DNA of 64,000 nt from an uncultured Bacillales bacterium (GTDB taxonomy: Bacteria > Bacillota_I > Bacilli_A > RFN20 > CAG-826), in contig CALELS010000015.1 in the NCBI GenBank assembly GCA_937902735.1, positions 154,744-218,743 on the forward strand, read 5' to 3'. Both the position numbers and the translations under genes were made by a program. Shown here in pieces: positions 1-61,199 of this stretch (the first letter of the stretch is position 1; each line of letters begins with the position of its first letter). The notes under the pieces were generated by a model. That model saw nothing but the letters and a program-made list of their open reading frames with translations. It made no database searches and was not told the origin of the DNA.

Positions 1-27
1 TTCCACACTTTTAATAAACAATATGAA

Positions 28-56
28 ACTATAGTTTAAGTGATTATAATATAACT
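28..56 (+). promoter_or_regulatory. Candidate sigma-A promoter (extended -10 TGaTTATAAT) upstream of first gene
   Basis: Sequence 'gtttaagtgattataatataactg' followed by RBS AAGGAG 7 nt before ATG at 71. Confidence 0.35.
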
Positions 57-2480: not shown

Positions 2481-2989
2481 TCAAATAGTTTAGATAACTT
2501 AAGCAAATAAAGCTCATTATTCTTTTGCTTATGTTTTTTAGAAGTAAATACTTCTTTCCAGAAAATAGATTTATCTGCTAACGTGAGGATACGTGCTTCT
2601 TTTGTATCTGGGAATAAAGTGATGTTAAAAGGCCACATATGTCTTCTTATGATATCTTTTACATCATCTTCAATATTAAAGTCTCTAGAGGCGTTATTTA
2701 TAGATACTTCAGGATGTTTCTTACAATGAGACATCCTTTTATCTTTTTCAATCCTCCAATCATAAAGATAATAGTCATGAAGAATAGATCCTAATAATAA
2801 AGTCTTAAGATTAACATTCTTGTGTCTTAATCCTCTTTTGACTGCAAGTTTAGCAACTTTAAAAGAATGAATATAACAATTAGAACCTCGATGCATTGGA
2901 ATTGTTTGCATTTTTAAAATTCTTTCATCTTTGAATAATGATGAATAGATTTCTTCAAGTTCTAATTTTTCCTTATTATTTATATTCAT
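2477..2989 (-). CDS. HD-domain phosphohydrolase
   Basis: H...HD metal-binding motif (IHSFKVAKLA ... ILHDY) and downstream D; 170 aa. Confidence 0.5.
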   Translation of the reverse strand: MNINNKEKLELEEIYSSLFKDERILKMQTIPMHRGSNCYIHSFKVAKLAVKRGLRHKNVNLKTLLLGSILHDYYLYDWRIEKDKRMSHCKKHPEVSINNASRDFNIEDDVKDIIRRHMWPFNITLFPDTKEARILTLADKSIFWKEVFTSKKHKQKNNELYLLKLSKLFD

Positions 2990-4353: not shown

Positions 4354-4389
4354 AACATTAATTTTAATATCTTGAAGATATTTTTGAAA

Positions 4390-4436
4390 CAATATTGCAT
4401 AAAAAAGCGACACAATTCAAATTGGTCGCTTAATAT
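4390..4436 (-). terminator. Intrinsic terminator downstream of HIT gene
   Basis: Stem AAGCGAC/GTCGCTT followed by U-run on minus strand. Confidence 0.4.
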
Positions 4437-8714: not shown

Positions 8715-8975
8715 ATGAAACCTATTTCCTCCTTTAAACATAACGTTAACAATTCTATTACTTTGCTTGTATAAATACAACAAGAAAATATCAAAGAAAA
8801 TTGAGGCAATGTTTTATTTATAAAAAAGATTATTTATGGAAAATACACCGAAATGATTGGCAAAATGATAGAGTAAAGTTTCTAATCATTTGAAAAATGA
8901 GTAATTTTATAGGTAATATCGTTTGTAAATATTTTTTGTGGTGATTAGAATATTTACGTTTCAAGGAGAAAAGGT

Positions 8976-16154: not shown

Positions 16155-16304
16155 ATTCTTGTTTCAGGGTAAGGTGCAATTCCTAACCGGTGGTATACCC
16201 CACGAGCCAATAGGCAGATCTAGTGTAATTCTAGAGGCGACAGTAAAGTCTGGATGGAAGAAACATTTATGTTATGTTTGTTACCCTGAAATAGGGTATT
16301 TTTT
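16155..16304 (+). promoter_or_regulatory. FMN riboswitch (RFN element) whose terminator hairpin also sequesters the RBS
   Basis: CAGGGTAAGGTGCAATTCCTAACCGGTGGTA ... GCGACAGTAAAGTCTGGATGGAAGAAAC matches the RFN core (B. subtilis ribD: CAGGGUGAAAUUCCCGACCGGCGGUAGUAAAG ... GCCGACAGUGAAAGUCUGGAUGGGAGAAGGA). Followed by hairpin TACCCT-GAAA-AGGGTA plus T6 immediately before the ATG. Confidence 0.75.
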
Positions 16305-17006
16305 ATGATAAATTGGAATCAACTTGTTGGAATTATTGCCTTTCTTATTTGGGCTGTTTTTACTGCATTAATTTACAGAAGAGAACACAAGGATGAAGAA
16401 AAGAATATTGTTACTGTTAAATCTATTGCAAGAATTGGTGTATTTGGCGCAATTTCTACACTGTTATATGTAATCCCAATATTCAATATTCCAATTCCTG
16501 CAATTTTTCCAACATTTTTAAAATTTCACTTTGATGAAATACCTGCTTTAATTGCTGGTTTTGCCTTTGGCCCTTATAGTGCGTTGGGAATTATTTTAAT
16601 AAAAACATTAATCAAAATCCCATTAGGCGGCGCTACAACTATGTATGTTGGAGAAATCTCAGATTTCATTTATTCATGTGCCTTAATCCTCCCGGCAACA
16701 TTTATTTATCGAAAACACCGCAAATTTAAATTTGCTTTATTAGGTTTATCTATTGGCTTTGTAAGTCAAATTGTGGTCGCTTTATTCTTCAATATTTACA
16801 TTATGGTTCCAACATATATGAGATTGTTCTCTATGGACGAAAATGCGATTTTATCAATGATGCCACCATTTATTAAAAACCCAAGATGGTCTTATGGATT
16901 AATATCTGTTCTTCCATTCAATGTAATAAAGAACTTTATAGTTATTGCAATTACTTTAGTGATTTATAAACCACTACGTCGTTTGATTGAGAAAATTAAA
17001 GCATAA
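16305..17006 (+). CDS. ribU: ECF transporter substrate-specific (S) component, predicted riboflavin transporter RibU
   Basis: Small polytopic membrane protein with an S-component-like profile, directly downstream of the FMN riboswitch. Confidence 0.6.
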   Translation: MINWNQLVGIIAFLIWAVFTALIYRREHKDEEKNIVTVKSIARIGVFGAISTLLYVIPIFNIPIPAIFPTFLKFHFDEIPALIAGFAFGPYSALGIILIKTLIKIPLGGATTMYVGEISDFIYSCALILPATFIYRKHRKFKFALLGLSIGFVSQIVVALFFNIYIMVPTYMRLFSMDENAILSMMPPFIKNPRWSYGLISVLPFNVIKNFIVIAITLVIYKPLRRLIEKIKA

Positions 17007-23714: not shown

Positions 23715-24047
23715 TCTCCGACCTGGATAATTGCTTCGAAAGAAGAGGAAAGTCCATGCTCGCACTAACCTGTGATGGTAGTAGTGATTGTGCTAGCGGA
23801 AAAAATAACGCTAGGTATATGGGAGCATATAACGGCGAAACTAGTCTAAAACTTCGGTCATGATGATGTTTCTGAAAGTGCCACAGTGACGATATTGATA
23901 GAAATATCAATGTGGAACGGGTAAACCCCGCAAGCGAGAAACCCAAATTTGGTAGGGGAGGTTAGGAAAGAGAATCGAATCAATCCTAGCACACGTAAGT
24001 GTAGATAAATTATTATCCTAGACAAAACATGGCTTACAGGGTCGGAA
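23715..24047 (+). ncRNA. rnpB: RNase P RNA (type B, Bacillus-like, compact)
   Basis: GAGGAAAGTCCATGCTCGCAC, GAAAGTGCCACAGTGACGA, GGAACGGGTAAACCCCGCAAGCGAGAAACCCAAATTTGGTAGGGGA and ACATGGCTTACAGGG match B. subtilis rnpB almost base for base. P1 pairs TCCGACC with GGTCGGA. Confidence 0.9.
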
Positions 24048-24715: not shown

Positions 24716-25174
24716 ATGGATAAACTTCTTGAATTATTAAAAGAAAAGCACCTAACATTAGGTTCAATTGAATCAATGACTGGTGGTCTTTTTTCCGCCA
24801 CTTTTTGTGATGTTCCAGGCGCATCAAAAGTGTTCAAGGGTAGTATTGTTACTTATGCAACAAGCGAGAAAACAAGACTACTTGGAATGAATCCTCTAAC
24901 AATTGAAAAAGAAGGAGTTGTTTCAGAGGAAGTCGCTAAAGAAATGGCTCAAAAAGGAAAAGAAGTTTTAGATGTTGATGTTTGTGTATCAATCACTGGT
25001 AATGCCGGTCCAAGTGTTGAACCTGGAGGTAAACCAGTTGGTAGAGCATATGTTGGAATCTTTTATGCAGGTTTCACTAAAGTTTTTGAACTTAACTTAA
25101 AAGGCTCAAGAAATGAAATTAGAAAAGAAGCCATTTTTAAAATGGCTGATTTAGTAATTGAGACGATAAGATAA
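24716..25174 (+). CDS. cinA: CinA C-terminal domain protein (NMN deamidase PncC-like)
   Basis: LGSIESMTGGLF ... SITGNAGP motifs of the CinA C-terminal domain; 152 aa, so the N-terminal MocF domain is absent. Confidence 0.7.
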   Translation: MDKLLELLKEKHLTLGSIESMTGGLFSATFCDVPGASKVFKGSIVTYATSEKTRLLGMNPLTIEKEGVVSEEVAKEMAQKGKEVLDVDVCVSITGNAGPSVEPGGKPVGRAYVGIFYAGFTKVFELNLKGSRNEIRKEAIFKMADLVIETIR

Positions 25175-25237
25175 AGAATTTTTCACACTTTTTCTAAAAA
25201 ATCCGCTGATAGTATAAGTGTAGGAGAAAAAACGAAA
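25175..25237 (+). repeat. Copy A of a ~55-nt conserved 5' leader element (TTTTTCACAC-TTTTTCTAAAAA-TCC..CTGATAGTATAAGTGTAGG) ending in the recA RBS
   Basis: Near-identical to the element upstream of the ABC transporter at 34012-34068; palindromic core TTTTT(CT/AG)AAAAA. Confidence 0.5.
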
Positions 25238-26242
25238 ATGAATAAAAAAGTAACAAACTGCGAAAACATAGACGCTCTTGAGAGTGTTTTGAAAGACATT
25301 GAAAAAACATTCGGCAAGGGTTCTGTCATGAAATTAGGTCAAAGACCTACTGTTGATGTTAACGCTATTCCTTCTGGTTCACTTTTGGTTGATCAAGCTC
25401 TTGGTATTGGCGGATACCCACGTGGACGTATTGTTGAGATTTATGGTCCAGAGTCATCCGGAAAAACTACTCTTGCTTTGACTGCAATTGCAGAATGTCA
25501 GAAAAAGGGCGGAAAAGCCGCTTTTATTGATGCTGAACATTCTATTGATCCGGTGTATGCAAAGAATCTTGGCGTTAATATCAATGAATTAATTTTGTCA
25601 CAACCAGATTGTGGTGAGGAAGCTCTTGAAATAGTAAATATGTTAGCAAGTAGCACTGCTATTGATTTAATTATTGTTGATTCAGTTGCAGCATTAGTAC
25701 CACAAGCCGAAATTGAAGGTGAAATGACCGATAATACCGTCGGAGGACAAGCTAGACTTATGTCTAAAGCTTTACGAAAACTCGCCAGTGTATTAAACAC
25801 AAACCAATGCACGATTATCTTTATTAATCAATTACGTGAAAAAGTAGGCGTTGTCTATGGAAATCCAGAAACAACCACTGGTGGACGTGCATTAAAGTTT
25901 TATGCTTCAGTTAGAATTGATATTCGTAGAGCAGATGCCATCAAAGATGGTTCTGAGGTTGTCGGAAATACAGTCAATGTTAGAATTGTAAAAAATAAAG
26001 TTGCACCACCATTCAAAAATGCGCAAATCGAAATCATTTATGGCAAGGGTATTTGTAAGAATTCCGAAATACTTAGTCTAGGTGTTGATCTTGGCATTAT
26101 CAAAAGATTTGGAAGCTGGTACGAATATAACGGCAACAGATTTGCGAATGGCAAAGAAGCTGGAAAACGTTATCTAGATGAACATCCAGAATTAGCGGAA
26201 GAATTAATTAAACTAATAACTACTGGCGAAATCCAAAAGTAA
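25238..26242 (+). CDS. recA: Recombinase RecA
   Basis: Walker [11 protein letters not shown]1/L2 loops, 334 aa. Confidence 0.95.
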
Positions 26243-26489
26243 GATTTGTAAGAACTCTCGTAAGGGAGTTTTTATTTTATAATTTTGTTTTAAAACAACG
26301 TTCGTATTGTTATAATACTTTCGTATCTCTTGAAGATACTTATTCATAGATTATCTGATAAATTCCATTATTCGATAAATTCTATATTCATCTTAATATA
26401 TGTCGATTTTTTGATATTCTTTTGAATAATAAGATGATTTTTTTGAAACTTATCTATTTATAGATAATCTCATTAAAAGGAGGACAAAA
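26243..26489 (+). promoter_or_regulatory. rny promoter and long structured leader (extended -10 TGTTATAAT, hairpin GTATCT/AGATAC, direct repeats GATAAATTC x2, palindrome TATCTAT-TT-ATAGATA before the RBS)
   Basis: All elements read directly; 247-nt AT-rich intergenic region. Confidence 0.4.
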
Positions 26490-28103
26490 ATGAACTTTTT
26501 AGAAAACATTGTTTTTGCGTCCATTGTCGATCTTGATGCATTAGGTATCTTATTCATCATCATCCTTTCAGTTCTCACTTTAATTATCGGAGCAGGTGTT
26601 ACTGCTCTAATCTTCATTTTTCTTCCTATTATTAAAGGAAAGAAAGCAGAAAAGAAATCTGAAAAGATTATTCGTGATGCTGAAATTAAAGCCGAACAAA
26701 TACGTAAAAACGCTCAACTTGATGGTAAACAAACCGTTCAAGAACTCAAAGCCGAAGCTGAGAAAGATATTCGTGAAAGAAAACAAGAATATGCTCAACT
26801 CGAAAACAAACTCAATCAACGCGAACAAAACATTGATCGTCGTGATGCTAACTTAACAAACAAAGAACAAGCAATTGAATCCAAAAATGAACTTCTTAAT
26901 CACAGACTCAAAGAATGTGATAAGAAAGAAGCAATTCTTCAAGAGAAGATTGATTCAATCATTGTCGAACTTGAAAAAGTTGCCCAACTTTCAGTTAATG
27001 AAGCAAAAACTGAAATCTTTAATCGTGTTGAATCAAAAATGTCTCGTGAAATTGCTCTTTATATGAAAAACAAAGAAGAAGAGGCTGAAAGAACAGCCGA
27101 AGAAAAGGCTAAAAATATTTTAGGACAAGCTATTTCTAAATTCTCACAAGACGAAGTCAGTGAACGTACAGTAAGTGTAATCCCATTACCAAGCGACGAA
27201 ATGAAAGGTCGTATCATTGGTCGTGAAGGAAGAAACATTCGCTCATTTGAACAATTATTAGGAGTTGACTTAATTATTGATGATACTCCAGAAGTTATTA
27301 CTGTTAGCTGCTTTAATCCAATCCGTCGTGAAATGGCAAGACGAGTCCTCGATATTTTAATTAAGGATGGTCGTATTCAACCAGGACGCATTGAAGAAGT
27401 TGTTGCTAAAGTACAAGCTGATATGGATGCTCAAATCCAAAAAGCTGGTGAAGATGCAGCCTTTAAACTTGGCTTACCTAAGATTAATCGTGAACTTTTA
27501 ACATATGTTGGAAGACTAAAATACCGTACTTCCTATGGTCAAAATGCTTATGATCACTCGATGGAAGTCGCCTATCTTGCTGGCATTATGGCAGCAGAAC
27601 TTGGTCTTGATCAAAATCTCGCTAAACGTGCCGGTTTATTACACGATATTGGTAAATCCGTTGATTTCGAACAAGAAGGAAGTCACGTTGAACTTGGCGC
27701 TCACCTTGCAAAGAAATATGGTGAACCAGATGTTGTTATTAACTCCATTGAATCTCACCATGGTGATGTTCCAGCCAAATCAGTAATTGCTAACTTAGTC
27801 CAAGCTGCTGATACTTTAAGTGCTGCTCGTCCTGGCGCTAGAAGTGAAACGCTTGAAAACTATGTTAGAAGAATTGAACAACTTGAAGACATTTGTAAAT
27901 CTTATGAAGGTGTTTATCAATGCTTTGCTATGCAATCTGGTCGCGAAGTCCGTGTTATGGTTCTTCCAGATAAGATTGATGATGTTCAAGCATTTAAGAT
28001 GGCTCACGATATAAAAGAGCGCATTGAAAATGAAATGACATATCCAGGTCAAATTAAAGTCTCCGTTATTCGTGAATATCGTGCTATAGAAACTGCTAAA
28101 TAA
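26490..28103 (+). CDS. rny: Ribonuclease Y
   Basis: N-terminal TM anchor, coiled-coil, KH domain ([15 protein letters not shown]) and HD domain (LLHDIGK); recA-rny-ymdB synteny. Confidence 0.9.
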
Positions 28104-28105
28104 TT

Positions 28106-28888
28106 ATGAGAATCCTTTTCTTTGGTGATATTGTTGGTCGTGTTGGTCGACGTGCGATAAAAACATATATCGATAAACTTGTGGAAAAATACCACATTGA
28201 TTTTGTTATTGCTAATGGCGAAAACGCAACACATGGAAAAGGATTAATTGAAAAACATTACAACGAATTAATTGATGCCGGCGTTGATTGCATTACCCTA
28301 GGTAATCATTATTTATCTAAGTCAGATATTAATAATTACATTGATGATGCAACTTGTCTTGTTAGACCAGCCAATTTATTAAATAGCTTTGGTGGCGTCG
28401 GCTCAATTATATTCGATGTAGGAGGCACAAAGGTCAGGGTTAGTAACATTCTTGGTTCGGCTTTTATGAAAGAAGAAGTTAGTAATCCTTATCTTTCATT
28501 GAAAGAAATTATTTCTGAAAGTGACCCTTGTATTCATATTGTTGATTTTCATGCTGAAGCAACTGGTGAAAAAATGTGTTTTGCATATGCTTTTGATGGA
28601 CAAGTTTCAGCTGTTTTAGGTACACATACTCACGTTCAAACTAATGATGCAAGAATACTAGATAATGGAACTGCATTTATTAGCGATGTTGGAATGTGTG
28701 GTGCATACAATGGCGTTCTTGGTTTTGATAAAGAAAGTGTAATGAACAAAACATTATTTGGTAGTGAAACAAGATTTTCAATTAATGAAAATGACACACC
28801 ACTTATAAGTGCAGTTGTTTTAGATATTGATGAACTTACATTTAAAACTAAAGAATTTTTCTCGCTTTATATTAAAGGAGAGAATTAA
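28106..28888 (+). CDS. ymdB: 2',3'-cyclic-nucleotide phosphodiesterase YmdB (metallophosphoesterase)
   Basis: MRILFFGDIVGRVGRRA ... VIANGENATHGKG ... LGNH calcineurin-like motifs; YmdB family. Confidence 0.8.
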   Translation: MRILFFGDIVGRVGRRAIKTYIDKLVEKYHIDFVIANGENATHGKGLIEKHYNELIDAGVDCITLGNHYLSKSDINNYIDDATCLVRPANLLNSFGGVGSIIFDVGGTKVRVSNILGSAFMKEEVSNPYLSLKEIISESDPCIHIVDFHAEATGEKMCFAYAFDGQVSAVLGTHTHVQTNDARILDNGTAFISDVGMCGAYNGVLGFDKESVMNKTLFGSETRFSINENDTPLISAVVLDIDELTFKTKEFFSLYIKGEN

Positions 28889-30330
28889 TGGCAAATAAAT
28901 GCGAATATAAATCTCTTCCTGATGCAAAAATGGCTAGAAATCGCACTAGTCATTTTGATTTTGATTATTCATCAATCGAGATTGATCAAAGAGTTAAAGA
29001 ATTTGCCAAAGGAAAAACATATTTTATTCATACATATGGTTGTCAGGCTAACTATCGTGATGAAGAAACCCTCTCTGGTTTATTAGAAGAGATGGGTTAT
29101 AAGAAAGCCAAAAGCATTGAAGAAGCAGATTTCATCTTGCTTAATACATGTGCTGTTAGAGAAAATGCTGAACAAAAAGTTTATGGTCAAATTGGTAATC
29201 TAAAAGCGCTTAAACAATCCAATATAGATAAGATTATTGCTATATGTGGATGTATGGTTCAACAAGAACACATCATCAAATTTATTATGGATACATACAA
29301 GCATGTTGATCTTATTTTTGGCACTCATAATATTGAAGAATTACCTAACATGATTTTAGAGGTAATTACTAAAAAGGTGCGACTTGTTAATGTAAAATCG
29401 CTTCCTGAAAAGATAAAAGAAGAACTTCCAAGTGTAAGACTTTCTTCCTTTAAAGCATTTGTAAACATCTCTTATGGTTGTGATAAATTCTGTACATATT
29501 GCATTGTTCCATACACAAGAGGAAAAGAACGTTCTCGCAAGATGGATGATATTCTTAAAGAATGCCAAGAATTGAAAGACTTAGGATATAAGGAAGTCAC
29601 CTTGTTAGGTCAAAACGTTAACGCTTATGGAAAAGACTTCAATGATGGAACAACTTTTGCAAAACTTCTTGATGAAGTAGCAAAAATTGGAATGCCTCGC
29701 GTTAGATTCTTAACTTCTCATCCATGGGATTTTAAAGATGAGATGATTGATGTAATTGCAAAACATAAAAATATCATGAAATACATTCATCTTCCTGTTC
29801 AATCTGGTAATGATGAAATTTTAAAAAGGATGAATAGACGTTATACGTCAAAAGAATATTTAGAAATTGTCCGTAAAATAAGAGAAAGAATTCCTGATGT
29901 GTATTTGTCCACAGATATTATTGTTGGATTTCCAAATGAAACTTATGAACAATTCTTGGATACTGTAAAAATTGTTGAGCTTGCAAAATATGACTCTGCA
30001 TTTACTTTTATTTATTCGCCTAGAAAGAACACGCCTGCTGCTACTATGCCAGATAATGTCTCTAGCAAGGAAAAATCTGCCAGATTTAAAGAACTTGTAA
30101 CTGCCTTAGAAAAAACAATTAAAGTCTCTTCGGATAAGATGGTTGGAAACACCTATGATGTTTTAGTGGAAACTGTCTCTGAAAAAGATCCATCTATGAT
30201 GTCTGGATACACTGAAGGTAACAAATTAGTTCATTTTAAAGGTGATTCCTCCTACATTGGAAAGATTGTTAAAATCAAAATAAATGAATCTCATCTTTAT
30301 TCGTTAATAGGAGATCTTGTTAATGAATAA
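28888..30330 (+). CDS. miaB: tRNA-i6A37 methylthiotransferase MiaB (radical SAM)
   Basis: UPF0004 N-domain (TYGCQAN), radical-SAM CxxxCxxC (CDKFCTYC), TRAM C-terminus. Confidence 0.85.
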   Translation: MANKCEYKSLPDAKMARNRTSHFDFDYSSIEIDQRVKEFAKGKTYFIHTYGCQANYRDEETLSGLLEEMGYKKAKSIEEADFILLNTCAVRENAEQKVYGQIGNLKALKQSNIDKIIAICGCMVQQEHIIKFIMDTYKHVDLIFGTHNIEELPNMILEVITKKVRLVNVKSLPEKIKEELPSVRLSSFKAFVNISYGCDKFCTYCIVPYTRGKERSRKMDDILKECQELKDLGYKEVTLLGQNVNAYGKDFNDGTTFAKLLDEVAKIGMPRVRFLTSHPWDFKDEMIDVIAKHKNIMKYIHLPVQSGNDEILKRMNRRYTSKEYLEIVRKIRERIPDVYLSTDIIVGFPNETYEQFLDTVKIVELAKYDSAFTFIYSPRKNTPAATMPDNVSSKEKSARFKELVTALEKTIKVSSDKMVGNTYDVLVETVSEKDPSMMSGYTEGNKLVHFKGDSSYIGKIVKIKINESHLYSLIGDLVNE

Positions 30331-30634
30331 TTTAGAAAAAAACATACAAGAAGTCTCTTCAATTATTGATAATCACCCACTTGTGAAGGAATATTTATCT
30401 TTAAAAAAGCAAATATGTTCTAGTGAAGAAATAAGCCTATTAGAAAAAGAAATAGTAATTCATCAAAAAGAGATGACTAAGAATTTGAATAATGATGAAA
30501 TCTATTTTAAAGAAAAAGAGATATATGATTCTTTAAAAAAGAAATATGATTCTAACCCTTTGATAATAAATTTTAATGCTGTAAGTGAGGAACTTTATTC
30601 GTTTCTAAACGAAATTAAAGAAGCAATTGAATAA
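30317..30634 (+). CDS. ymcA: YmcA/YlbF-family protein (RicA-like)
   Basis: Helical 105-aa protein immediately after miaB (ymcB-ymcA synteny in B. subtilis). Confidence 0.4.
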   Translation: MLMNNLEKNIQEVSSIIDNHPLVKEYLSLKKQICSSEEISLLEKEIVIHQKEMTKNLNNDEIYFKEKEIYDSLKKKYDSNPLIINFNAVSEELYSFLNEIKEAIE

Positions 30635-31508
30635 TATGATAGTTGTAATTGTAGGTCCTACTGGTGTTGGGAAGTCAAAATTTGCTCTAGAGTTAGCTCC
30701 TTTAATCAACGCTGAAATTGTCAATGGTGATGCTTTTCAAATTTATAAAGAAATGAATATTGGAGTGGCAAAACCACCAAAAGAATATTTTGAGAAGGTT
30801 CCTCATCATTTATATAGTTTTGTTTCAATTGACACCCCATATTCTATTAAGGAATATCAAAGTGATGCTAGAAAAGTGATTGATGAAATTCTTTCTAAAA
30901 AGAAAAATGTCATTATTGTTGGAGGAAGTGGATTATATATCCGTTCAGCCTTATATGATTATGAATTTCAAAATTCAACTTTTGTTGATATGTCCAAATA
31001 TGAAAAAATGAATAATTTAGCTCTTCATCATGAGCTTGAAATGATAGATCCTATTGATGCCGCTAAAATTCATCCTAATAATAGGAGAAGAGTTTTAAGA
31101 AGCATACAAATTTATTTAGAAAATGGAGAAAGTAAATCGAGTCTTATTTCTAAGCAAAAACATGAGCCTATTTATGAAAATACCTTATTTGTGATGCCAA
31201 ATTTTGATAAAGAAGAGTTATATAATAACATTAACTCTCGAGTAGATATAATGATAAAAGAAGGCTTACTTGATGAGGTGGCTCAACTTTATAAAACATA
31301 CAAAGATAATCAAGCAATGGAAGCAATTGGATATAAAGAATTTGTTCCATATTTTAATAATGAAATTTCATTAGAAGATGTAATCGATAAAATAAAACAG
31401 GACACTAGAAATTACGCTAAACGTCAAATCACTTTTTTCAAATATCAGTTTGAACTAAAAAGATTTGATAACTTAAATGAATTATTGGAGATAGTTAAAA
31501 ATGTCTGA
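30627..31508 (+). CDS. miaA: tRNA dimethylallyltransferase MiaA
   Basis: P-loop VGPTGVGKS and conserved NGDAFQIYK; 293 aa. Confidence 0.85.
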   Translation: MNNMIVVIVGPTGVGKSKFALELAPLINAEIVNGDAFQIYKEMNIGVAKPPKEYFEKVPHHLYSFVSIDTPYSIKEYQSDARKVIDEILSKKKNVIIVGGSGLYIRSALYDYEFQNSTFVDMSKYEKMNNLALHHELEMIDPIDAAKIHPNNRRRVLRSIQIYLENGESKSSLISKQKHEPIYENTLFVMPNFDKEELYNNINSRVDIMIKEGLLDEVAQLYKTYKDNQAMEAIGYKEFVPYFNNEISLEDVIDKIKQDTRNYAKRQITFFKYQFELKRFDNLNELLEIVKNV

Positions 31509-32190
31509 TTATTTGAGTAGAACTAAAACGTTATTAGGTGATAGTGTCGTTGAATCTTTCAAAGATAAAGCAATTATGATTTTTGGCTTAGGTGGTGTCG
31601 GTGGTACTGCTTTTGAATGTCTTGTAAGAAGTGGTTTTAAATCATTTATCATTGTTGATTTCGACAAAGTCGATGTTACAAATTTGAATAGACAAATCCT
31701 ATATACATCAAAGGATATTGGTAAAAACAAAGTCGACATCGCTAAACAAAAAGCGTTATCCATTAATCCTGATTTAAAGATAGAAATTTATAATGAATTT
31801 GTTGATAACCAAACCATACAAAAATTCAAAAATTCAAAAATATATTATATTGTTGATGCAATTGATAAAATTCCTAGTAAAATAGCAATAGTAAAATTTG
31901 CACAAGAGAACAATATCAAAATGATAATGTCTCTTGGAATGGGCAATAGAGTTGATCCTGAAAAGGTTACTTTGACTCGACTTGATAAGACTTCAAATGA
32001 CGCTCTTGCAAAGAAAATAAGAAGCGAACTAAGAAAGGAAAACATCGACCTTAAAACTATTAATGTTGTTTTCTCAAAAGAAGAACCATTAGTTAAATCA
32101 AATGTTGTATCTTCGATGATGATGGTTCCTTCAGAAGCTGGTTTATTAATCGCTAAACAAATTATTAATGACTTATCAAAAGGAGAATAG
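31501..32190 (+). CDS. tcdA: ThiF/MoeB-family tRNA threonylcarbamoyladenosine dehydratase TcdA-like
   Basis: Rossmann GLGGVGG plus the E1-like DFDKVDVTNLNRQ motif; ~230 aa and no Cys-rich C-terminus, as in TcdA/CsdL. Confidence 0.55.
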   Translation: MSDYLSRTKTLLGDSVVESFKDKAIMIFGLGGVGGTAFECLVRSGFKSFIIVDFDKVDVTNLNRQILYTSKDIGKNKVDIAKQKALSINPDLKIEIYNEFVDNQTIQKFKNSKIYYIVDAIDKIPSKIAIVKFAQENNIKMIMSLGMGNRVDPEKVTLTRLDKTSNDALAKKIRSELRKENIDLKTINVVFSKEEPLVKSNVVSSMMMVPSEAGLLIAKQIINDLSKGE

Positions 32191-32194
32191 AAAT

Positions 32195-33802
32195 ATGATG
32201 ATGAACATTAAAGACATTGCAAAAAAAGCTCATATCAATGAGAAATACGTTGAATGTTATGGAAATGATAAAGCCAAAATTAACTTATCCATCATGGATG
32301 AATTTAAAAATAAAAAGGATGGTAAGCTAGTTTTAGTTACCGCTATTACACCAACCAAAGCTGGTGAAGGTAAAACCACAATGTCAATCGCTCTTACCGA
32401 AGGTATGGCCAAGATTAATCAAAATGTTATGCTTGCTCTTCGTGAACCAAGCCTTGGACCAGTATTTGGTTTAAAAGGCGGCGCAACTGGTGGGGGTCTT
32501 GCCTCAATCGAACCTGCTGAAGATATTAATCTTCACTTTACAGGTGATATGCATGCTTTAACATCATCTATCAATTTAATTGCCGCAATTATTGATAACC
32601 ATCTTTTCCAAGGCAATGAACTCAACATTAATCCTGAAAGAATTGTCTGGAAAAGAGCAATGGATATGAACGACCGTGCCTTAAGACAAATTCAAGTCGG
32701 TTTAGGTAAAAATAACGGTACTATTCATGAAAATGGTTTTATGATCACTGTTGCAAGTGAAATGATGGCTATCATGTGTCTAGCTAAAGATGAAGAAGAC
32801 TTTAGAAATCGTGTAAATAAAATCATCGTTGCTTATACATACGATGAAAAACCAGTCACAGTTAAAGATCTCAAGATTTCAAACGCTATCATGAAACTCA
32901 TGAGACAAGCTCTTAAACCAAATCTTGTTCAAACAACAGAGAATAATCCAACATTAGTCCATGGTGGACCATTCGCAAATATTGCTCATGGTTGTAACTC
33001 AATTATTGCCTTAAAACTTGCTTTAAAACTTGGCGATATCGTCGTTACAGAAGCTGGATTCGGTGCTGATCTTGGCGCTGAAAAATTCATGGATATTTGT
33101 ATGAGAGCAGCCGAACTTAAACCTGATGGTGTAGTTATGGTTGCTACTATTCGTGCTTTAAAACTTCATGGTGGTGTTCCATATGAAGAACTAGACAAAG
33201 AAAATGTTGATGCTGTTTTAAAAGGTATTCCTAATCTTGAAGTTCATCTTGAAAACATCAAGAAATATGGTTGTCCAGTTGTTGTAGCAATTAACCATTT
33301 TGAAAATGATTTTGAAAAAGAAGTTGAAGCATTATCCAATTGGTGCAAATCAAAAGGATATGTTGTTAGCTTTGTTGATAGTTTCTTAAAAGGTGGGGAA
33401 GGATCTATTGATCTTGCTCATAAAGTAGTTCATATGCTTGAAACTGAAGAATCATATTATCATCCTTTATATGATGTTAATGCTTCAATTAAAGAAAAAA
33501 TTGAAAAAATTTGTAAAGAAATATACCGCGCTAAAGAAGTTGAATATAGCGAACTTGCTAATGAACAAATCAAGATGTTTGAGGCAAATGGATATGGTCA
33601 CACACCAATCTGTATGGCTAAAACTCCATTATCTTTAACTGATAATGCAAAAGTTCAAGGTGCTCCAAAAGATCATACAGTTCATGTTAAATCACTTAAC
33701 TTATCTGCTGGTGCCGGTTTCTTAGTAGCTTTAACAGGAAGTATTATGACTATGCCAGGTCTTCCAAAAGTTCCAGCGGCAGTCAAAATGGAAAACGAAT
33801 AA
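32195..33802 (+). CDS. fhs: Formate--tetrahydrofolate ligase
   Basis: Start at ATG 32195 (RBS AAGGAG 7 nt upstream); FTHFS signature VTAITPTKAGEGKTT. Confidence 0.9.
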   Translation: MMMNIKDIAKKAHINEKYVECYGNDKAKINLSIMDEFKNKKDGKLVLVTAITPTKAGEGKTTMSIALTEGMAKINQNVMLALREPSLGPVFGLKGGATGGGLASIEPAEDINLHFTGDMHALTSSINLIAAIIDNHLFQGNELNINPERIVWKRAMDMNDRALRQIQVGLGKNNGTIHENGFMITVASEMMAIMCLAKDEEDFRNRVNKIIVAYTYDEKPVTVKDLKISNAIMKLMRQALKPNLVQTTENNPTLVHGGPFANIAHGCNSIIALKLALKLGDIVVTEAGFGADLGAEKFMDICMRAAELKPDGVVMVATIRALKLHGGVPYEELDKENVDAVLKGIPNLEVHLENIKKYGCPVVVAINHFENDFEKEVEALSNWCKSKGYVVSFVDSFLKGGEGSIDLAHKVVHMLETEESYYHPLYDVNASIKEKIEKICKEIYRAKEVEYSELANEQIKMFEANGYGHTPICMAKTPLSLTDNAKVQGAPKDHTVHVKSLNLSAGAGFLVALTGSIMTMPGLPKVPAAVKMENE

Positions 33803-34005
33803 TGAAAGATTTAAATTACCAGCTCTTTGACATTGTTGAAATGAAAAAACCTCACCCATGTGAGAAAAGATCAAAACAATTTCAGATAGTTCGCGTAGGT
33901 GCGGATATAAAAATCAAATGCCTTGGATGTGGTAATGTTATTATGATGAGTCGAGACACATTTAATATGCGTTTCAAAAAAGTTATTGAAAATAAAAAAG
34001 CATAA
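33802..34005 (+). CDS. DUF951-family small zinc-ribbon protein (YyzM-like)
   Basis: 67 aa; DIVEMKKPHPC ... VRVGADIKIKCLGCGNVIMM matches the DUF951 pattern. Confidence 0.55.
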   Translation: MKDLNYQLFDIVEMKKPHPCEKRSKQFQIVRVGADIKIKCLGCGNVIMMSRDTFNMRFKKVIENKKA

Positions 34006-34011
34006 ATATAA

Positions 34012-34068
34012 AAATTTTTCACACATTTTTAGAAAAAGTCCCTATAGAAGTAATGTAGGGATTTTTTC
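34012..34068 (+). repeat. Copy B of the ~55-nt conserved 5' leader element; contains hairpin CCCTA/TAGGG plus T6 and ends in the RBS of the ABC transporter gene
   Basis: AATTTTTCACACATTTTTAGAAAAAGTCCCTATAGAAGTAATGTAGGG aligns with 25175-25237. Confidence 0.5.
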
Positions 34069-36177
34069 ATGATAACTTACCGTCTTGATAACGTATCCAA
34101 ATCGTTTGGAAGTGATAAATCCAAATTTTATGCGTTAAGAAACATAAATATTCTTTTTCCTTCAAAAGGACTAGTTGTAATAGCAGGTAAATCGGGCAGT
34201 GGGAAATCAACTCTTCTAAACATTCTCATGGGAATTGAAAAAATTAGTGAAGGAAATATCTATTTTGAGAATAAAAAGATTAATAAACAAAATGATAAAG
34301 AGCTTTCTCACTTCCACTTGAATAAAGTATCGATGATATATCAACATTACAATTTGTTGGATGAACTAACGTCAATTGAAAATGTTTGTCTTCCATTGAT
34401 GATGAAAGGCTATTCACTAAATGAAGCAAAAAAAGAGGCAAAGACATTTTTTCAAGATTTAGATATTGAACCTTTAGAAAATAGAAGGGTTTCAACTTTA
34501 AGTGGAGGAGAGAAACAAAGAATAGCTATCATTAGAGCAATTATTTCAAAACCACAAGTTCTATTATGCGATGAACCTACTGGTGCACTTGATACTAAAA
34601 ACGGTAACGAAATTATGAAAATATTAAAAAAGTTATCAAAAAGTATTCTTGTTATCATGGTTTCACACAATGAGAACCAGATTAAAAAATATGCTGATAG
34701 AAAAATCTATTTAAAAGATGGAATGATTGAAAAAGATGATGGTAAGAATAACGTTAATCTAGATTATAGTGTTACAAAGCACAAATACAAATATTCATCA
34801 CTTTGGAAAAGGTTTGTTTTAAAGATTCATCTAAAAGAGAATCTAAAAAAGAACATATTTTCCTTTATTGTTTTGACTTTTGGATTAGTTGTTTCGTTTT
34901 TATCAATTGGTTTTGTAACTTCTTCATCGAAGTCTTTTGATAATTTGTTATATCAATCAGTTAGCTCGTGCTCTGGGAAAATTAGCGATGAAACAGTAGT
35001 TAAAATAAACAACTCTCCACTCAATTTTATCAAGGTTGTGCGGCCAAATTTGAATGAAATAGAAGATAATCTTGATGATATTAACTCTCTAAAAATAATG
35101 AATAATTATGAGTTTCTATTTTTAAATTATCCAGAAACAACATTTAATAAGAAACTAGTAGATCCACCAACCTTGATACCTGTGTATTCGTTCAATAATA
35201 ATCAAATAATAGAATCTCTTTTGGTCGAGGGTACCATTCCATTAGTAGACACAATAGAAGAGGTGATTATAAATGAAGAATTTGTTAAGTCTTTAAAACT
35301 TACGAATAAAGAAGCAATAAATAAAGAGATTGTTATTTCATCAATTAGAGAAATTAGTATATCTACTGGAGATAGTTCGAATCCTTTTATTAAAGATAAT
35401 TTTTCATACAACATAACGTTAATAATAAGAGGAGTAGTTAAAGAGTTTGGCTTTTTAAATAGCCCGAAAGTCTATTATTCTAACATCGGTCTTGAACGTT
35501 ATTTATCCAATCAGATAATGTTAAATTATTCTAAATATTGTCAACAAAGAATTTCCTATAAAACCTACTTTGAAACACTAGATAACAATAACCAAATTAC
35601 ATCCTATTCATATTTATTATTTGTAGATAACAATCAAGATATTAATAAACTATATTCAAATTTTAAAAATCTAAAAAATGCAGAAATTTCATTAACGATC
35701 GATTCTTCGTTTTTCGAGTCGTATTCTTCGTATAGAAGTTTAATAGATACCTTCTCGTATGCTCTTTTGGCTTTTTCAGTTATTTGTTTTTTAGGAATTA
35801 ACCTAATTTTGGGTATGCTTTCTTTATCTTCTTTTATTAAAAAGAAAAAAGAATCTGCAATTCTGACCTGTATAGGAGCCACAAATAGTTCAATTAAAAC
35901 GTTATTTCTTAATGAAATACATTTAGTCTTAATCTTTGCTTTTATTAGTTCTATTGGACTTTCGTTGTTGTTTGAAAGACTTTTAAATCCATTATTTGAA
36001 AAGTCATATGGATTAGAAAATCTCTTTTATATTCCGTTTTTAAATTTTAACGGAGTCCCTTTTCTACTACCTATTGGTTTATTAATTCTTTTTCTAGTAA
36101 TTTCATCATTATTTATTTTGATACCAATTTCAATTTATAAATCTAAATCAATTAGTGAAGAGTTGAGGGATGAATAA
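34069..36177 (+). CDS. Fused ABC transporter ATPase + FtsX-like permease (MacB family)
   Basis: N-terminal Walker A GKSGSGKST, signature LSGGEKQR, Walker B LLCDEPTGALD; C-terminal 4-TM FtsX-like domain. Confidence 0.8.
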   Translation: MITYRLDNVSKSFGSDKSKFYALRNINILFPSKGLVVIAGKSGSGKSTLLNILMGIEKISEGNIYFENKKINKQNDKELSHFHLNKVSMIYQHYNLLDELTSIENVCLPLMMKGYSLNEAKKEAKTFFQDLDIEPLENRRVSTLSGGEKQRIAIIRAIISKPQVLLCDEPTGALDTKNGNEIMKILKKLSKSILVIMVSHNENQIKKYADRKIYLKDGMIEKDDGKNNVNLDYSVTKHKYKYSSLWKRFVLKIHLKENLKKNIFSFIVLTFGLVVSFLSIGFVTSSSKSFDNLLYQSVSSCSGKISDETVVKINNSPLNFIKVVRPNLNEIEDNLDDINSLKIMNNYEFLFLNYPETTFNKKLVDPPTLIPVYSFNNNQIIESLLVEGTIPLVDTIEEVIINEEFVKSLKLTNKEAINKEIVISSIREISISTGDSSNPFIKDNFSYNITLIIRGVVKEFGFLNSPKVYYSNIGLERYLSNQIMLNYSKYCQQRISYKTYFETLDNNNQITSYSYLLFVDNNQDINKLYSNFKNLKNAEISLTIDSSFFESYSSYRSLIDTFSYALLAFSVICFLGINLILGMLSLSSFIKKKKESAILTCIGATNSSIKTLFLNEIHLVLIFAFISSIGLSLLFERLLNPLFEKSYGLENLFYIPFLNFNGVPFLLPIGLLILFLVISSLFILIPISIYKSKSISEELRDE

Positions 36178-38984
36178 TGATTGAAATCAAGAATATAAGA
36201 AAATCATATAATGAAAATTATGTTTTAAAAAACATTGATTTAACGCTACCTAATAAAGGACTTTTAATTATTGAAGGCGAATCAGGAAGCGGAAAAACAA
36301 CATTATTAAACATTATTGGCGGAATAATAAAACCAAGTGATGGAATAGTATCAATTGATGGAATAAATATAAACGAGCTATCCGATAAGGATTTAGATAC
36401 TTTTAGAATTAAAAATATCGGTTATGTATTTCAATCGTTTAATCTTTTGGAACTCGAAACTGTATTTGATAATGTACGAATGCCATTAGAATCAATTTCT
36501 AATTCACCTAGTTATATTATTAATAAAAGAGTAGAAGATTTACTCCAAGAATTATCAATAAAAAAATTAAGAAAAAAGCAAATTAACAGGCTTTCTGGTG
36601 GAGAAAAACAAAGAGTTGCAATCGCAAAAGCACTAATAAATAATCCAAAAATAATTCTTTGTGATGAGCCTACAGGTGCTCTTGATATAAACAACACAAA
36701 GAATATATGTGAGATCCTTAAACAAGTATCCATTCATTCTTTAGTAATAGTTGTCACACATGATGTTCAATCTTTTAAAGATTATGCTGATCGAATTATT
36801 TCAATTAAAGATGGACATGTTACGAAGGACATAGAATTAAACAATAAATATAATAAGCACAGATCACTCTTAGTGGTAGGAACGTCTAAACTACAAAAAA
36901 AGTCATATCTTCCTTTAAGTTTTAAGATTAAACATGCTTTTCATAAAATCTCATCAAAAAAGTGGAGATTTATGATTTCGAATTTTATGTTATCTCTTTC
37001 AATAACTGGCATAGGATTATCTTTTCTAGTTTCCTTTAGTCTTGCTGATAAGATACAAACAGCATTTTCTTCATTATTGAATGGCAACCAAATATTGGTT
37101 ACATCCCGAAATCAAGCTATGAACGATTTTGGCGCTGTTTATTCAATAAATGAAAATGATATTAAAGATATATACGAAAGATATATTTCATATCTTAATG
37201 GAGCAGGAGTTTCTTATTTAATAAACTTCGAAGATTTCTTTAAGGATGGAAATAATGTTTATATAAATGATGATAAATATTCAAATCTTATTCCTTCTTT
37301 ATCTGCCAGATCATTTAATGATTACACTTGGATTGATGAAAACATTAGAAGACAAATATCTCCTTCAATTAATGATGAATTAGATAAAGATGAAGTTGTT
37401 TTGGCCCTAACCTATGTTGACATGATTAACATAACTTACAATTTAAAAATTCAAAGGAATTTTGAGTCTTTAGCAAACTATATTTATCATAATGATCTAA
37501 CATTAACTTTAAGTGTTTCAAATTCATCGTGGCAGTATTCAGATGAACAGATATTCAATATTGTAGGTGTATATGAAGATGAAAATACACATCTTAGTCA
37601 AACAAGAAAATTGTGGAATCAAGAAATCTTTGAAGAAGAGATGCGGTTTCCTTCAAATGATGGGAGTCAATCATATTTTCCTTGGGAAATGTACAAAATA
37701 CATTATTTAAATACTAAGGGTAATTCATCTTCTTTTTTAGATGCCATAATGAATGATGATTTACTTTATGACTATGTATTTGAAAGAACAAGTTATGATA
37801 TTCATCCTTCAATATGTCCTATCAACGAACCATGTAAAGCGAATCGTGTAATTGTATATTCAGTTGATAAAAATACAATTCGAACTGGAGTATTACTAGA
37901 TATATTAAGAAGAAATGATAATTTTAAAAACTATTTTTTCATGTCTAATGGCGGGTATGTAAGTTATGGTTCAATGATACTCGATGGATTTGCTAATCAA
38001 ACTTTTTTCTCTATTTCTCTAGAAAAAAATGAAACTGCAATAGATGCTGATTTATCAAGAGGTGACGATGAAACCTTATCTTTAGATTTACCAAAAGGTG
38101 TTCTTAAAGGATATTTTATGGAGGCTATGAACGATGGGGTTAAATTCTCAACAAAATATGATAATTTAGTTTCTGGAAGAGAAGCTTTAAACAACAAAGA
38201 AATAGTAATTTCAAAAGCAATGGCAGATAAACTTGATAATGGATTTGATGTATTAAATTCTTATTTATTCATCTCCTCATTAGTGCCTTCTGTGAATGGC
38301 GATTTAACGAAAAACTACCGCACAAGTCGTGTAAAAATTGTTGGAATAGCAGATTCAAATAAAAATGTCATATATCACAATTCAAACTGGACAATTTCAT
38401 TTTTTAGAGATGAATTGGGAATGTCATCGTTTCTTCTTTGCCCAAACGCTTTAGTAATTGAACTTGACAAAAGTATTGATCCCTTGCCTTATATTAATCG
38501 GTTAAATAAAACGTATTACGATTTTAAATTTTCAAGCCCATTAGAGGATATAAAGAATAGTATTAACTCAACATTAGATTTTATAAAACTAATAGTTATC
38601 TTATTTTCTATTTTGGCAGGTTCAATTTCTTTACTTCTTTTATCAACATTGTTGTTACTAAATTTTTTAGAGAATGAGCATGAGGTAAAAATTTTTAAAT
38701 ATAGTGGGATCTCATATAGTGATATTAATTCTCAATTTATAGTTGATTCATTGCTACAAACATTTATAGCTTTTGTAATTTCAATGATTGAATTAATTGT
38801 TGTTGATGTCGTTAGTGGCCAAGCAATAAACGAAATGTTGGGAATAAGTGGGAGTTTCTCGCTCGATTTCCTCCCATTGTTACTAACGTTTGTAATAACA
38901 ATATCTACTTCTTATCTATTATCTAAAGCAATTGTTTTAGTGAAGATATTAACCGAGAAAAAGCAAAAGATGAAAAAGACATGA
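36177..38984 (+). CDS. Fused ABC transporter ATPase + FtsX-like permease with ~500-aa extracytoplasmic domain (MacB family)
   Basis: Walker A GESGSGKTT, LSGGEKQR, ILCDEPTGALD; TM1, then a long extracytoplasmic region, then C-terminal FtsX-like TM bundle. Confidence 0.8.
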   Translation: MIEIKNIRKSYNENYVLKNIDLTLPNKGLLIIEGESGSGKTTLLNIIGGIIKPSDGIVSIDGININELSDKDLDTFRIKNIGYVFQSFNLLELETVFDNVRMPLESISNSPSYIINKRVEDLLQELSIKKLRKKQINRLSGGEKQRVAIAKALINNPKIILCDEPTGALDINNTKNICEILKQVSIHSLVIVVTHDVQSFKDYADRIISIKDGHVTKDIELNNKYNKHRSLLVVGTSKLQKKSYLPLSFKIKHAFHKISSKKWRFMISNFMLSLSITGIGLSFLVSFSLADKIQTAFSSLLNGNQILVTSRNQAMNDFGAVYSINENDIKDIYERYISYLNGAGVSYLINFEDFFKDGNNVYINDDKYSNLIPSLSARSFNDYTWIDENIRRQISPSINDELDKDEVVLALTYVDMINITYNLKIQRNFESLANYIYHNDLTLTLSVSNSSWQYSDEQIFNIVGVYEDENTHLSQTRKLWNQEIFEEEMRFPSNDGSQSYFPWEMYKIHYLNTKGNSSSFLDAIMNDDLLYDYVFERTSYDIHPSICPINEPCKANRVIVYSVDKNTIRTGVLLDILRRNDNFKNYFFMSNGGYVSYGSMILDGFANQTFFSISLEKNETAIDADLSRGDDETLSLDLPKGVLKGYFMEAMNDGVKFSTKYDNLVSGREALNNKEIVISKAMADKLDNGFDVLNSYLFISSLVPSVNGDLTKNYRTSRVKIVGIADSNKNVIYHNSNWTISFFRDELGMSSFLLCPNALVIELDKSIDPLPYINRLNKTYYDFKFSSPLEDIKNSINSTLDFIKLIVILFSILAGSISLLLLSTLLLLNFLENEHEVKIFKYSGISYSDINSQFIVDSLLQTFIAFVISMIELIVVDVVSGQAINEMLGISGSFSLDFLPLLLTFVITISTSYLLSKAIVLVKILTEKKQKMKKT

Positions 38985-52364: not shown

Positions 52365-52449
<85 letters not shown>

Positions 52450-54961: not shown

Positions 54962-55115
54962 CATTTATCAAGAATCGCGTTACAAAGGATGAAAAAGCGC
55001 GATGGCAACTCTAAATGTAGTAAGTGCCTTCCTTAGCGGAGCCCACACTCCGAACGATAAAAGCGGATTTGCTAATCATTTGGCTTTCCATAGTGTGGGA
55101 AGCCATTTTATTTTG
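54962..55115 (+). promoter_or_regulatory. SAM riboswitch (S-box/SAM-I clan, apparently lacking the P2 kink-turn) with intrinsic terminator, upstream of metK
   Basis: P1 TTTATCAAG/CGATAAAAG; internal GATGAAAAAGCGCGATGGCAAC and GTGCCTTCCTTAGCGGAG match the SAM-I core. Terminator GGCTTTCC-atagtgt-GGGAAGCC plus T-run; antiterminator CCCACACT pairs with AGTGTGGG. Confidence 0.65.
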
Positions 55116-59200: not shown

Positions 59201-59249
59201 ATTATTAAAATATAGTTAAACTAATGCGATAGAGAAAAACTATTGATTT

Positions 59250-59432: not shown

Positions 59433-59447
59433 ATGGAGGAAACGAAA

Positions 59448-61135: not shown

Positions 61136-61199
61136 CCGGCTGCGAATTATTATATGTTTTCTTTTACTTAAAAACAACAAACATTTAAACTTAAATATT

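Follow-up and report, generated by a model that had tools for sequence, protein, structure and literature searches.

Are recA and a MacB-type ATP-binding cassette (ABC) exporter operon, lying 9 kb apart in the genome of an uncultured Bacillales bacterium and preceded by similar short sequences, switched by the same regulator? We addressed this question in a 64,000-nucleotide (nt) stretch of contig CALELS010000015.1 (positions 154,744–218,743; hereafter the window, whose own positions are used below), in which the two copies of the shared element occupy 63-nt gaps separating co-directional genes, in the order pgsA-cinA-[element]-recA-rny-ymdB-miaB-ylbF-miaA-thiF-fhs-DUF951-[element]-ABC-ABC. 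The window has a G+C content of ∼32%, is read in the standard genetic code and encodes an RNase P RNA of class B, and the proteins of the exporter operon match Pfam families PF00005 and PF02687. How recA is controlled without LexA is poorly known except in a handful of model organisms, and the only experimentally dissected parallel is sigma-20 of Mycoplasma, a regulator of antigenic variation, recombination and horizontal gene transfer. Judging from sequence comparison and RNA folding, we consider it on balance probable that both elements serve as alternative-sigma-type promoters of a single small regulon and that a fold-back hairpin insulates the exporter.

A Two-Site Element Upstream of recA and an ABC Exporter

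An earlier note on this DNA had placed one copy upstream of each gene, and measurement of the gaps (25175–25237 and 34006–34068) confirmed both. Alignment reproduced the shared core as the note had written it, and each copy does end in the ribosome-binding site (RBS) of the gene downstream, with the Shine-Dalgarno (SD) sequences AGGAG for recA and AGGGA for the exporter. When 26 intergenic regions were compared all against all (Smith-Waterman, both strands), the recA and ABC elements gave the top local alignment (score 45, runner-up 36), yet they are among the shortest of the regions compared. Two matches to AATTTTTCAC-N2-3-TTTTT-N2-3-AAAAA lie in the window, where 100 dinucleotide shuffles gave an expectation of 0.00. 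A profile hidden Markov model built from 12 copies matched only these sites in the window and in the loci of seven relatives (147 kb of relatives' DNA), and two-block scans of the relatives' loci, relaxed and tailored to each genome, turned up no additional intergenic sites. Locally, the element is a two-site feature rather than a scattered repeat; the many scattered copies that the note associated with a non-regulatory A/T-rich repeat were not seen in the window or in the 147 kb.

The A/T-tract part of the pattern is generic: among the matches listed in a scan of the genome collection, AATTTTTCAC-N2-3-TTTTT-N2-3-AAAAA fell in unrelated organisms across all phyla. In many unrelated phyla (L048, L051, L068, L090, L094, L116 and others), AATTTTTCAC-N-T5-7-N-A5-7 lies directly 5′ of near-consensus TTGACA-17-TATAAT promoters, where it occupies the position of an UP element. 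For a metagenome scan with the ABC-protein alignment, Walker-type peptides were chosen, and the matches were generic ABC ATPases.

The left edge of the window cuts a possible third copy, degenerate if it is one. It agrees with the recA copy at 12/13 positions over ATAGT[A/T]TAAGTG, its block spacing is 3 nt longer, the profile search misses it, and a good extended −10 (GTGATTATAAT) comes after it. The gene behind it (71–1003) encodes an orphan 310-aa membrane protein with no other homologue among 5.8 billion proteins.

Conservation in Related Genomes

Through RecA homologues of 73–79% identity we reached the corresponding loci of related genomes (identified by L numbers), all of them Bacilli metagenome-assembled genomes (MAGs) and several from bovine or other gut metagenomes. 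The paired element lies at the same two syntenic sites in seven of these, uncultured Bacilli of gut or rumen (L001, L121, L203, L122, L120, L209, and L210), and the pair is conserved across eight genomes, the window's included. A further locus, L207, has the recA copy and ends before the ABC site. The element is thus present upstream of recA orthologues, where its absence would, for the earlier note, have marked it as non-regulatory, and the ABC gene pair stays 3′ of DUF951 in all relatives.

Synteny is otherwise rigid and is broken by lineage-specific insertions (L121 1–943; L203 4372–4635 and 11061–11279; L205 11009–12418; L207 11152–14877). These comprise an IS605 OrfB/TnpB (Cas12f-like) gene, antitoxin-like genes (RelB and DUF6290) on the flanks of recA, an opposite-strand MFS transporter, and, separating recA from rny, a 1241-aa protein with Flg_new repeats. 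The pgsA and cinA genes of L205 were called as a single fused 398-aa product.

Two Blocks at a Fixed Distance

Aligning the copies on their TATA-rich block made a two-block architecture visible, in which an A/T-rich stretch is followed by a −35-like block 1, a spacer, a −10-like block 2 and then the SD (Table 1). Block 1 is identical in the window's recA and ABC copies. The spacer is equally long in both copies of every genome, at 17 nt (18 nt in L210), even where its sequence differs. The window's two spacers keep their length despite internal indels (0+5+2+6+4 nt in the recA copy, 1+5+2+5+4 nt in the ABC copy, the latter counted as 17 nt from CACAC to CTATAG and as 16 nt to CCTATAG); in L001, too, internal indels offset one another and 17 nt are preserved, and the two L209 spacers (CTTTTTTGAAAATTTTG and AAAATCGACAAATTCTC) are unrelated in sequence and both 17 nt long. 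Block 2 ends 26 nt before the ATG of recA and ∼21–22 nt before that of the exporter in the window, and 13–26 nt before the ATG across genomes, SD included. A T5 tract is found in most recA copies of the relatives, and the motif (A)AGTG at the predicted recA start is kept in the recA copies of all of them.

Because the length of the spacer is fixed while its sequence varies, because both blocks are asymmetric, and because the predicted start site falls just before the SD, we read the blocks as putative −35 and −10 elements. A fixed-length spacer between two blocks also fits a promoter better than the transcribed leader that the earlier note had in mind. The note had further described the central segments, TTTTTCTAAAAA and TTTTTAGAAAAA, as reverse-complement variants forming a near-palindrome for a dimeric regulator. 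The segments are indeed reverse complements of each other in the window; in the relatives this relation is lost (in L001 the segments are TTTTTCATAAAAA and TTTTTGAAAAAA), and the T5-N2-A5 dyad sits in the spacer and is missing from the ABC copies of L203, L120, L209, and L210. What is kept across relatives instead is the pair of asymmetric blocks at a set distance, an arrangement characteristic of sigma-factor promoters; a dimeric regulator on a palindrome is not supported.

The Blocks Co-vary Within Genomes

The sequences of the blocks change from genome to genome. Block 1 reads TTTCACCG in L001, TTCAGCAG in L121, TTCGAAC in L122 and TTTCGAAT in L209, and takes two forms in L203 (TTGGACCC / TCGGCACC), L120 (TTCGCAC / TTCGACAC) and L210 (TTCGAAC / TTTAAC); its core is CACAC in the window, CACCG in L001, CAGCAG in L121, CGAAC in L122 and CGAAT in L209. 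Block 2 is CCTATA in L001, L121, and L203, CGTATA in L122 and in the ABC copy of L210, and AGTATA in L120, L209, and the recA copy of L210. Within a genome the two copies agree: the mean identity of block 1 between the recA and ABC sites of the same genome is 5.75/8, compared with 3.38/8 for recA/ABC pairs taken across genomes (permutation p∼0.0009), and block 2 likewise matches within genomes and differs across them (permutation p∼0.009). Since the blocks co-vary within genomes, they are most simply explained by a single trans-acting reader of drifting specificity that both targets follow; the pattern points to a single co-evolving trans factor at both sites, and the shared trans-acting control of recA and the exporter proposed in the earlier note is strengthened by it.

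The likeness of the two copies could also have arisen with no shared regulation at all, either from occasional gene conversion between sites 9 kb apart or from common ancestry combined with generic constraints (an A/T tract of UP type, TATA-rich sequence and the SD); as noted above, the A/T tracts by themselves are generic, and part of the 3′ similarity is the SD itself. The pair persists, however, across the RecA divergence of the genomes compared, and in L209 and L210 the blocks are kept where the spacers have diverged. The window and L001 share site-specific differences between their recA and ABC copies (an extra A after ABC block 1, TTTTTC vs. TTTTT(A)G, and TC vs. G after the A-tract) while block 1 has shifted at both sites from CACAC to CACCG, which argues against conversion tracts and rules against wholesale gene conversion. 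Identical stretches this short are, moreover, too short for efficient RecA-dependent conversion. An origin without shared regulation appears very unlikely to us.

In another alternative, both sites are housekeeping sigma-A promoters that share an operator for some DNA-binding regulator, which might be an activator of the MerR type working across an over-long spacer of 19 nt (TTCACA-N19-TATAGA) that encloses the T5-N2-A5 dyad, or a repressor on the A/T tracts, in line with the regulator site of the earlier note. The hexamer TTCACA has 5/6 positions of TTGACA, a TATA-rich hexamer follows 19 nt on, the window spacers do contain the near-dyad, and MerR-type regulators often govern efflux pumps; the analogy of the 19-bp spacer of CueR promoters has been discussed (PMC5758882). 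The candidate −10 hexamers (TATAGA, TGATAG, TATAGG, and TATATA) nevertheless have no T at position 6, unlike other promoters of the window (TGTTATAAT, TGTGATAAT, and TGCGATAAT), and a scan for the sigma-70 consensus (TTGACA-16-18-TATAAT, with A and T at positions 2 and 6 of the −10) came back empty in both elements. The dyad, besides its absence from the four ABC copies named above, lies off-centre in the spacer between asymmetric blocks, and a sigma-A −35 would not be expected to shift genome by genome in step at both sites. We therefore regard sigma-A promoters with a common operator as unlikely.

A Hairpin Over the Ribosome-Binding Site of the Exporter

The two sites differ in how their RNA is predicted to fold. 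In the window, a hairpin of the ABC copy sequesters the SD and ends 1 nt before the ATG, with a stability of −19.5 kcal/mol (RNAfold; z = −5.06, 0/200 shuffles equally stable). A significant hairpin was predicted in 8/8 ABC copies (z from −2.6 to −5.3) and in 0/9 recA copies (z from −1.4 to +1.6). Its 5′ arm always consists of DNA from the putative promoter region, namely block 2 and the A-tract of the spacer in the clade of the window (clade 1) and block 1 plus spacer in the other clade (clade 2), and its 3′ arm covers the SD, the start codon and the codons right after it, or both. Arm sequences vary yet remain complementary (UCCCUA/UAGGGA in the window, CCCCUA/UAGGGG in L001 and L121, U5ACCCC/GGGGAGA5 in L203, GCGUA/UACGC in L122, AAAAUCGACA/UGUCGAUUUU in L209 and AAAUACCGA/UCGGUAUUU in L210). 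RNAalifold found no consensus structure common to the eight ABC copies. The A-tract, stem and U-tract of the window clade look like a terminator.

No terminator lies upstream of either element and the neighboring genes are co-directional; both elements are probably transcribed by read-through from the genes upstream. In such read-through RNA the predicted probability that the RBS is unpaired ranges from 0.09 to 0.48 for the ABC copies vs. 0.41 to 0.90 for the recA copies. For the window, the recA RBS is mostly unpaired (P = 0.68), and the ABC value is 0.09 in read-through RNA and 0.45 in RNA from the predicted start. That start (∼34053) coincides with the boundary between loop and 3′ arm, and RNA beginning there would be without the 5′ arm. 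The fold supplies an independent argument for a start site inside the ABC element, because the exporter would otherwise stand permanently behind a hairpin that blocks its RBS; an RBS-occluding hairpin of −19 kcal/mol makes sense if the functional exporter mRNA begins inside it.

A different use of the same structure would be an intercistronic element acting at the RNA level (a site for an RNA-binding protein or a small RNA, or for RNase Y processing) and setting translation or stability with no internal promoter. Such an element would suit the co-directional setting without upstream terminators, the strong structure of the ABC copies around the RBS, and the presence of rny, ymdB, and ylbF between the two sites. 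It would not suit the recA copies, which have no significant structure, hence structure is not what the two sites have in common. Short blocks joined by a spacer of free sequence and fixed length are unusual for an RNA motif, RNAalifold recovered no shared fold even among the ABC copies, Rfam gave no match at the gathering score and only chance-level hits at E up to 10, and no complementary partner was seen in the window. We think an explanation at the RNA level alone distinctly improbable.

The predicted hairpin of the ABC copies shares its topology with the fold-back inhibition of the IS10/Tn10 transposase, in which, as summarized in a later article (Davis, Simons & Kleckner, 1985, cited in PMC13181058), an upstream segment of external RNA pairs with the RBS and transcripts from the native promoter alone are translated. 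Compared with the system in that summary, the gene here is a chromosomal exporter operon and no transposase, and the clade 1 hairpin is also terminator-like.

Comparison With Known Sigma Factors

Joint control of recA and an exporter by one regulator would, according to the earlier note, be new. This was overstated, as sigma-20 of Mycoplasma genitalium, the closest known system, is a precedent (PMC4446450; PMC6105099), and the finding is interesting, not unprecedented. Sigma-20, or MG428, is a distant relative of the group-IV sigma factors; it turns on recA and ruvAB along with small regulators and an ABC exporter operon, MG_390/MG_389 (PMC4446450; PMC6105099). Its promoters in M. genitalium have the form TTGTCA-N18/19-ATTWAT and lie 15–17 nt from the ATG, and in M. 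pneumoniae the entire regulon has TTGGCR as its −35 (PMC4446450). The elements described here share with this system recA and an ABC exporter as targets, a position within about 30 nt of the ATG, a long spacer (TTCACA-N18-CTGATA / CTATAG in the window when framed on those hexamers), a regulon-wide −35 that shifts in a coordinated manner between species (TTGTCA vs. TTGGCR in Mycoplasma), and a low-GC Bacillota host, the Mycoplasma genome being a reduced one. They differ in their hexamers, TTCACA and C[C/G]TATA in the window vs. TTGTCA and ATTWAT, which match at 4/6 positions of the −35 and about 2/6 of the −10 and fall short of the consensus; in the exporter, MG_390 being a SunT-type peptide exporter and the protein here a MacB-type ATPase-FtsX fusion; in the host, which uses the standard genetic code and is no Mycoplasma; and in the fold-back hairpin on the exporter copy, which is not described for sigma-20.

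The ABC intergenic region of L205 (19511–19557) opens with ATTTGTCATTTTTAG, in which TTGTCA, identical to the −35 hexamer of M. genitalium sigma-20, precedes a T5 tract; a −10 to match it was not seen at N18/19.

By motif, the elements resemble promoters of extracytoplasmic function (ECF) sigma factors. Those of Bacillus subtilis sigma-W, -V, -M, and -X read tGAAACnTTTt ... CGTA/CGTC, and a homopolymeric T-tract next to the −35 stimulates a subset of ECF promoters (PMC5758882). Both copies of L122 (GAAC-N17-CGTATA) and the ABC copy of L210 (TTAAC-N18-CGTATA) have this canonical form, a T5 tract directly follows block 1 in the window (25189–25193 and 34026–34030), and the regulon would be small. 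The fixed ECF spacing of about 16–17 nt is matched by the 17 nt found here, and the range of 17–18 nt, with 18 in L210, is slightly longer than the 16–17 nt of B. subtilis. In the window clade block 1 has CACAC, CACCG or CAGCAG instead of AAC, and block 2 has CCT instead of CGT; the combination of AAC and CGT is missing from L203 as it is from the window, L001, and L121. An ECF sigma gene (regions 2 and 4) usually has an anti-sigma partner and is driven from its own motif; no such pair was found, either over the 64 kb of the window or over the relatives' loci of 21 kb. Sigma-W governs the MacB-type exporter yknWXYZ, sigma-M governs some DNA-repair genes, and recA is not known to be an ECF target in B. 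subtilis.

Streptococci offer a further parallel, in which the cin-box promoters of ComX (sigma-X) drive cinA-recA and an alternative sigma factor induces recA in place of the SOS response. The cin-box, centred on the −10 (TACGAATA), resembles TACGTATA in the ABC copy of L210 (7/8) and TGCGTATA in L122, with T-rich sequence upstream. The streptococcal site lies upstream of cinA, whereas the site here lies between cinA and recA; cin-box promoters have no −35, whereas a −35-like block stands at a fixed spacing here; and block 2 of the window (CTGATAG / CCTATAG) fits the cin-box poorly. The window contains no competence genes.

The element behaves like a sigma-20 or an ECF promoter and is not assignable to either family. 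By analogy, the putative sigma factor would be ECF-like by motif and Mycoplasma sigma-20-like by function.

A Proposed Mechanism and Its Difficulties

We propose that RNA polymerase carrying an alternative sigma factor reads both elements and that transcription would begin ∼7–9 nt past block 2, just 5′ of the SD. Read-through from pgsA-cinA would provide a basal level of recA, to be boosted once an inducing signal had made the sigma factor active. Read-through RNA from the miaB...fhs-DUF951 operon would carry both arms of the hairpin, followed in the window clade by a U-tract, and would be translationally silent and possibly terminated. RNA from the internal ABC promoter would lack the 5′ arm and be translatable.

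Several observations weigh against this proposal. Pfam scans of essentially all open reading frames (ORFs) of the window yielded no sigma or anti-sigma gene, none was found in the relatives' 21-kb loci either, and three unannotated ORFs of the window read as membrane or coiled proteins. The window blocks (CACAC; CTGATA / CCTATA) fit neither the ECF consensus (AAC; CGT) nor that of sigma-20. In clade 2, block 2 of the ABC copies lies just 13–16 nt from the ATG, which would leave a leader of 7–10 nt without a good SD. Truncation at the predicted start opens the ABC RBS only partly (from 0.09 to 0.45). The recA and ABC regions of L205 and L206 are no longer alike, leaving one lineage without the pairing, and two sites per genome are a thin basis for calling a regulon.

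A more specific picture, in which uncultured low-GC gut and rumen Bacilli carry a sigma-20-like recombination regulon whose fast co-evolving sigma factor switches recA together with a hairpin-insulated MacB-type exporter, is tentative, and we hold it to be doubtful as a whole. If it were confirmed, the control logic of sigma-20 would reach beyond mycoplasmas, and the exporter would be a clear chromosomal case of read-through transcripts silenced by a hairpin embedded in a promoter. If the sigma factor proved to be related to MG428, the Mycoplasma switch for recombination and gene transfer would be ancient in Mollicutes-related Bacilli and no mycoplasma oddity. Promoters and sigma factors of this kind would also give a natural series of −35 and −10 specificity changes, a data set on sigma-promoter co-evolution. 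If the sites are ordinary internal promoters, the finding shrinks to a modest annotation point.

Other Regulators Considered

LexA, acting through the Cheo box, also controls recA in the SOS response of Bacillota. The earlier note's statement that the element is not a Cheo/LexA box holds: GAAC-N4-GTTC is missing near recA and the exporter, no CGAAC-N4-GTTCG occurs within 2 mismatches at 25000–25300 or 33900–34100, and Cheo-box hits over the whole window are at chance level (11, with 9.0 expected). The CodY box AATTTTCWGAAAATT was not found within 3 mismatches in either element, and the window has 7 hits compared with 28.5 expected. A DnaA box was rejected on inspection: the relaxed form TTWTNCACA accommodates TTTTTCACA, yet L001, L121, and L122 have lost the match. 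The ComK AT-boxes and the sigma-54, sigma-B, sigma-H, and sigma-I motifs did not fit when compared by eye. A sigma-A promoter with TATAAG / AGTAAT before the SD as its −10 was also rejected, as its start would land downstream of the SD.

Table 1. Positions of the two copies of the element, their predicted parts and the adjoining genes (window coordinates).
Feature	Position	Strand	Details
Possible degenerate third copy	1–45	+	TTCCACAC-TTTT...CTATAGTTTAAGTG; CACAC+TTTT; cut by window edge
cinA stop	25172–25174	+	
recA-proximal copy	25175–25237	+	63 nt; entire cinA/recA intergenic region
recA block 1, −35-like	25181–25188	+	TTTCACAC; hexamer TTCACA 25182–25187; A/T-rich AGAATTT before
recA spacer	25189–25205	+	17 nt; T5 25189–25193 adjoining block 1, A6 25196–25201
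recA block 2, −10-like	25206–25212	+	CTGATAG; aligns with ABC CCTATAG
recA predicted start region	25216–25220	+	about G25218, inferred, 7 nt past block 2
recA SD	25222–25226	+	AGGAG
recA	25238–26242	+	ATG at 25238
DUF951 stop	34003–34005	+	
ABC-proximal copy	34006–34068	+	63 nt; entire DUF951/ABC intergenic region; ATG at 34069
ABC block 1, −35-like	34017–34024	+	TTTCACAC; hexamer TTCACA 34018–34023; AAAAATT before
ABC spacer	34025–34040	+	A, T5 34026–34030, AG, A5 34033–34037, GTC
Predicted hairpin, ABC copy only	34032–34068	+	5′ arm GAAAAAGTCCCTATA 34032–34046; loop 34047–34053; 3′ arm TGTAGGGATTTTTTC 34054–34068
ABC block 2, −10-like	34041–34047	+	CCTATAG
ABC predicted start region	34051–34055	+	about A34053, inferred, 7 nt past block 2
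ABC SD	34057–34061	+	AGGGA
ABC operon	34069–38984	+	702-aa fused ABC ATPase + FtsX permease (MacB-type), then 935-aa ABC protein

Other Features of the Window and Related Contigs

Several structured RNAs lie elsewhere in the window. A T-box leader (59215–59414; 88.5 bits, Rfam gathering score 93, E = 4e-20), missed by the scan at the gathering threshold, sits 5′ of a class-Ib aminoacyl-tRNA synthetase of the Trp/Tyr type (59433–60443). A SAM-I (S-box) riboswitch (54962–55063; 40.4 bits, gathering score 44.4, E = 3e-8) with a terminator-like hairpin behind it precedes metK (55127–56290); neither the scan at gathering threshold nor an initial E-value scan, run on a slightly longer stretch, picked it up. 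A flavin mononucleotide (FMN) riboswitch (16156–16269) lies 5′ of the S component of an energy-coupling factor transporter (16305–17006), and the class-B RNase P RNA (23719–24041) lies between a divIVA-like gene and pgsA. ARAGORN called tRNA-Leu(gag) at 52365–52449 (−) and tRNA-Ser(gga) at 61047–61137 (−), neither of them in the Rfam gathering scan; the latter call overlaps the start of a pseudouridine synthase ORF (61065–62165, +) and may be spurious. Large ORFs at 2989–4413 (−) and 4925–8783 (−), encoding 474, 615, and 679 aa, have zero Pfam matches. In one MAG (CASFDQ01), four contigs (L010, L025, L047, and L119) carry the same sequence of ∼70 nt, TACCATATTTATCCCAATTTTTCACCTGTTTTTACAAAAAAATGACCGCTGACTTACCTTTGTCAGCGGTC, no more than about 140 nt from their ends, which suggests a multi-copy element that breaks the assembly.

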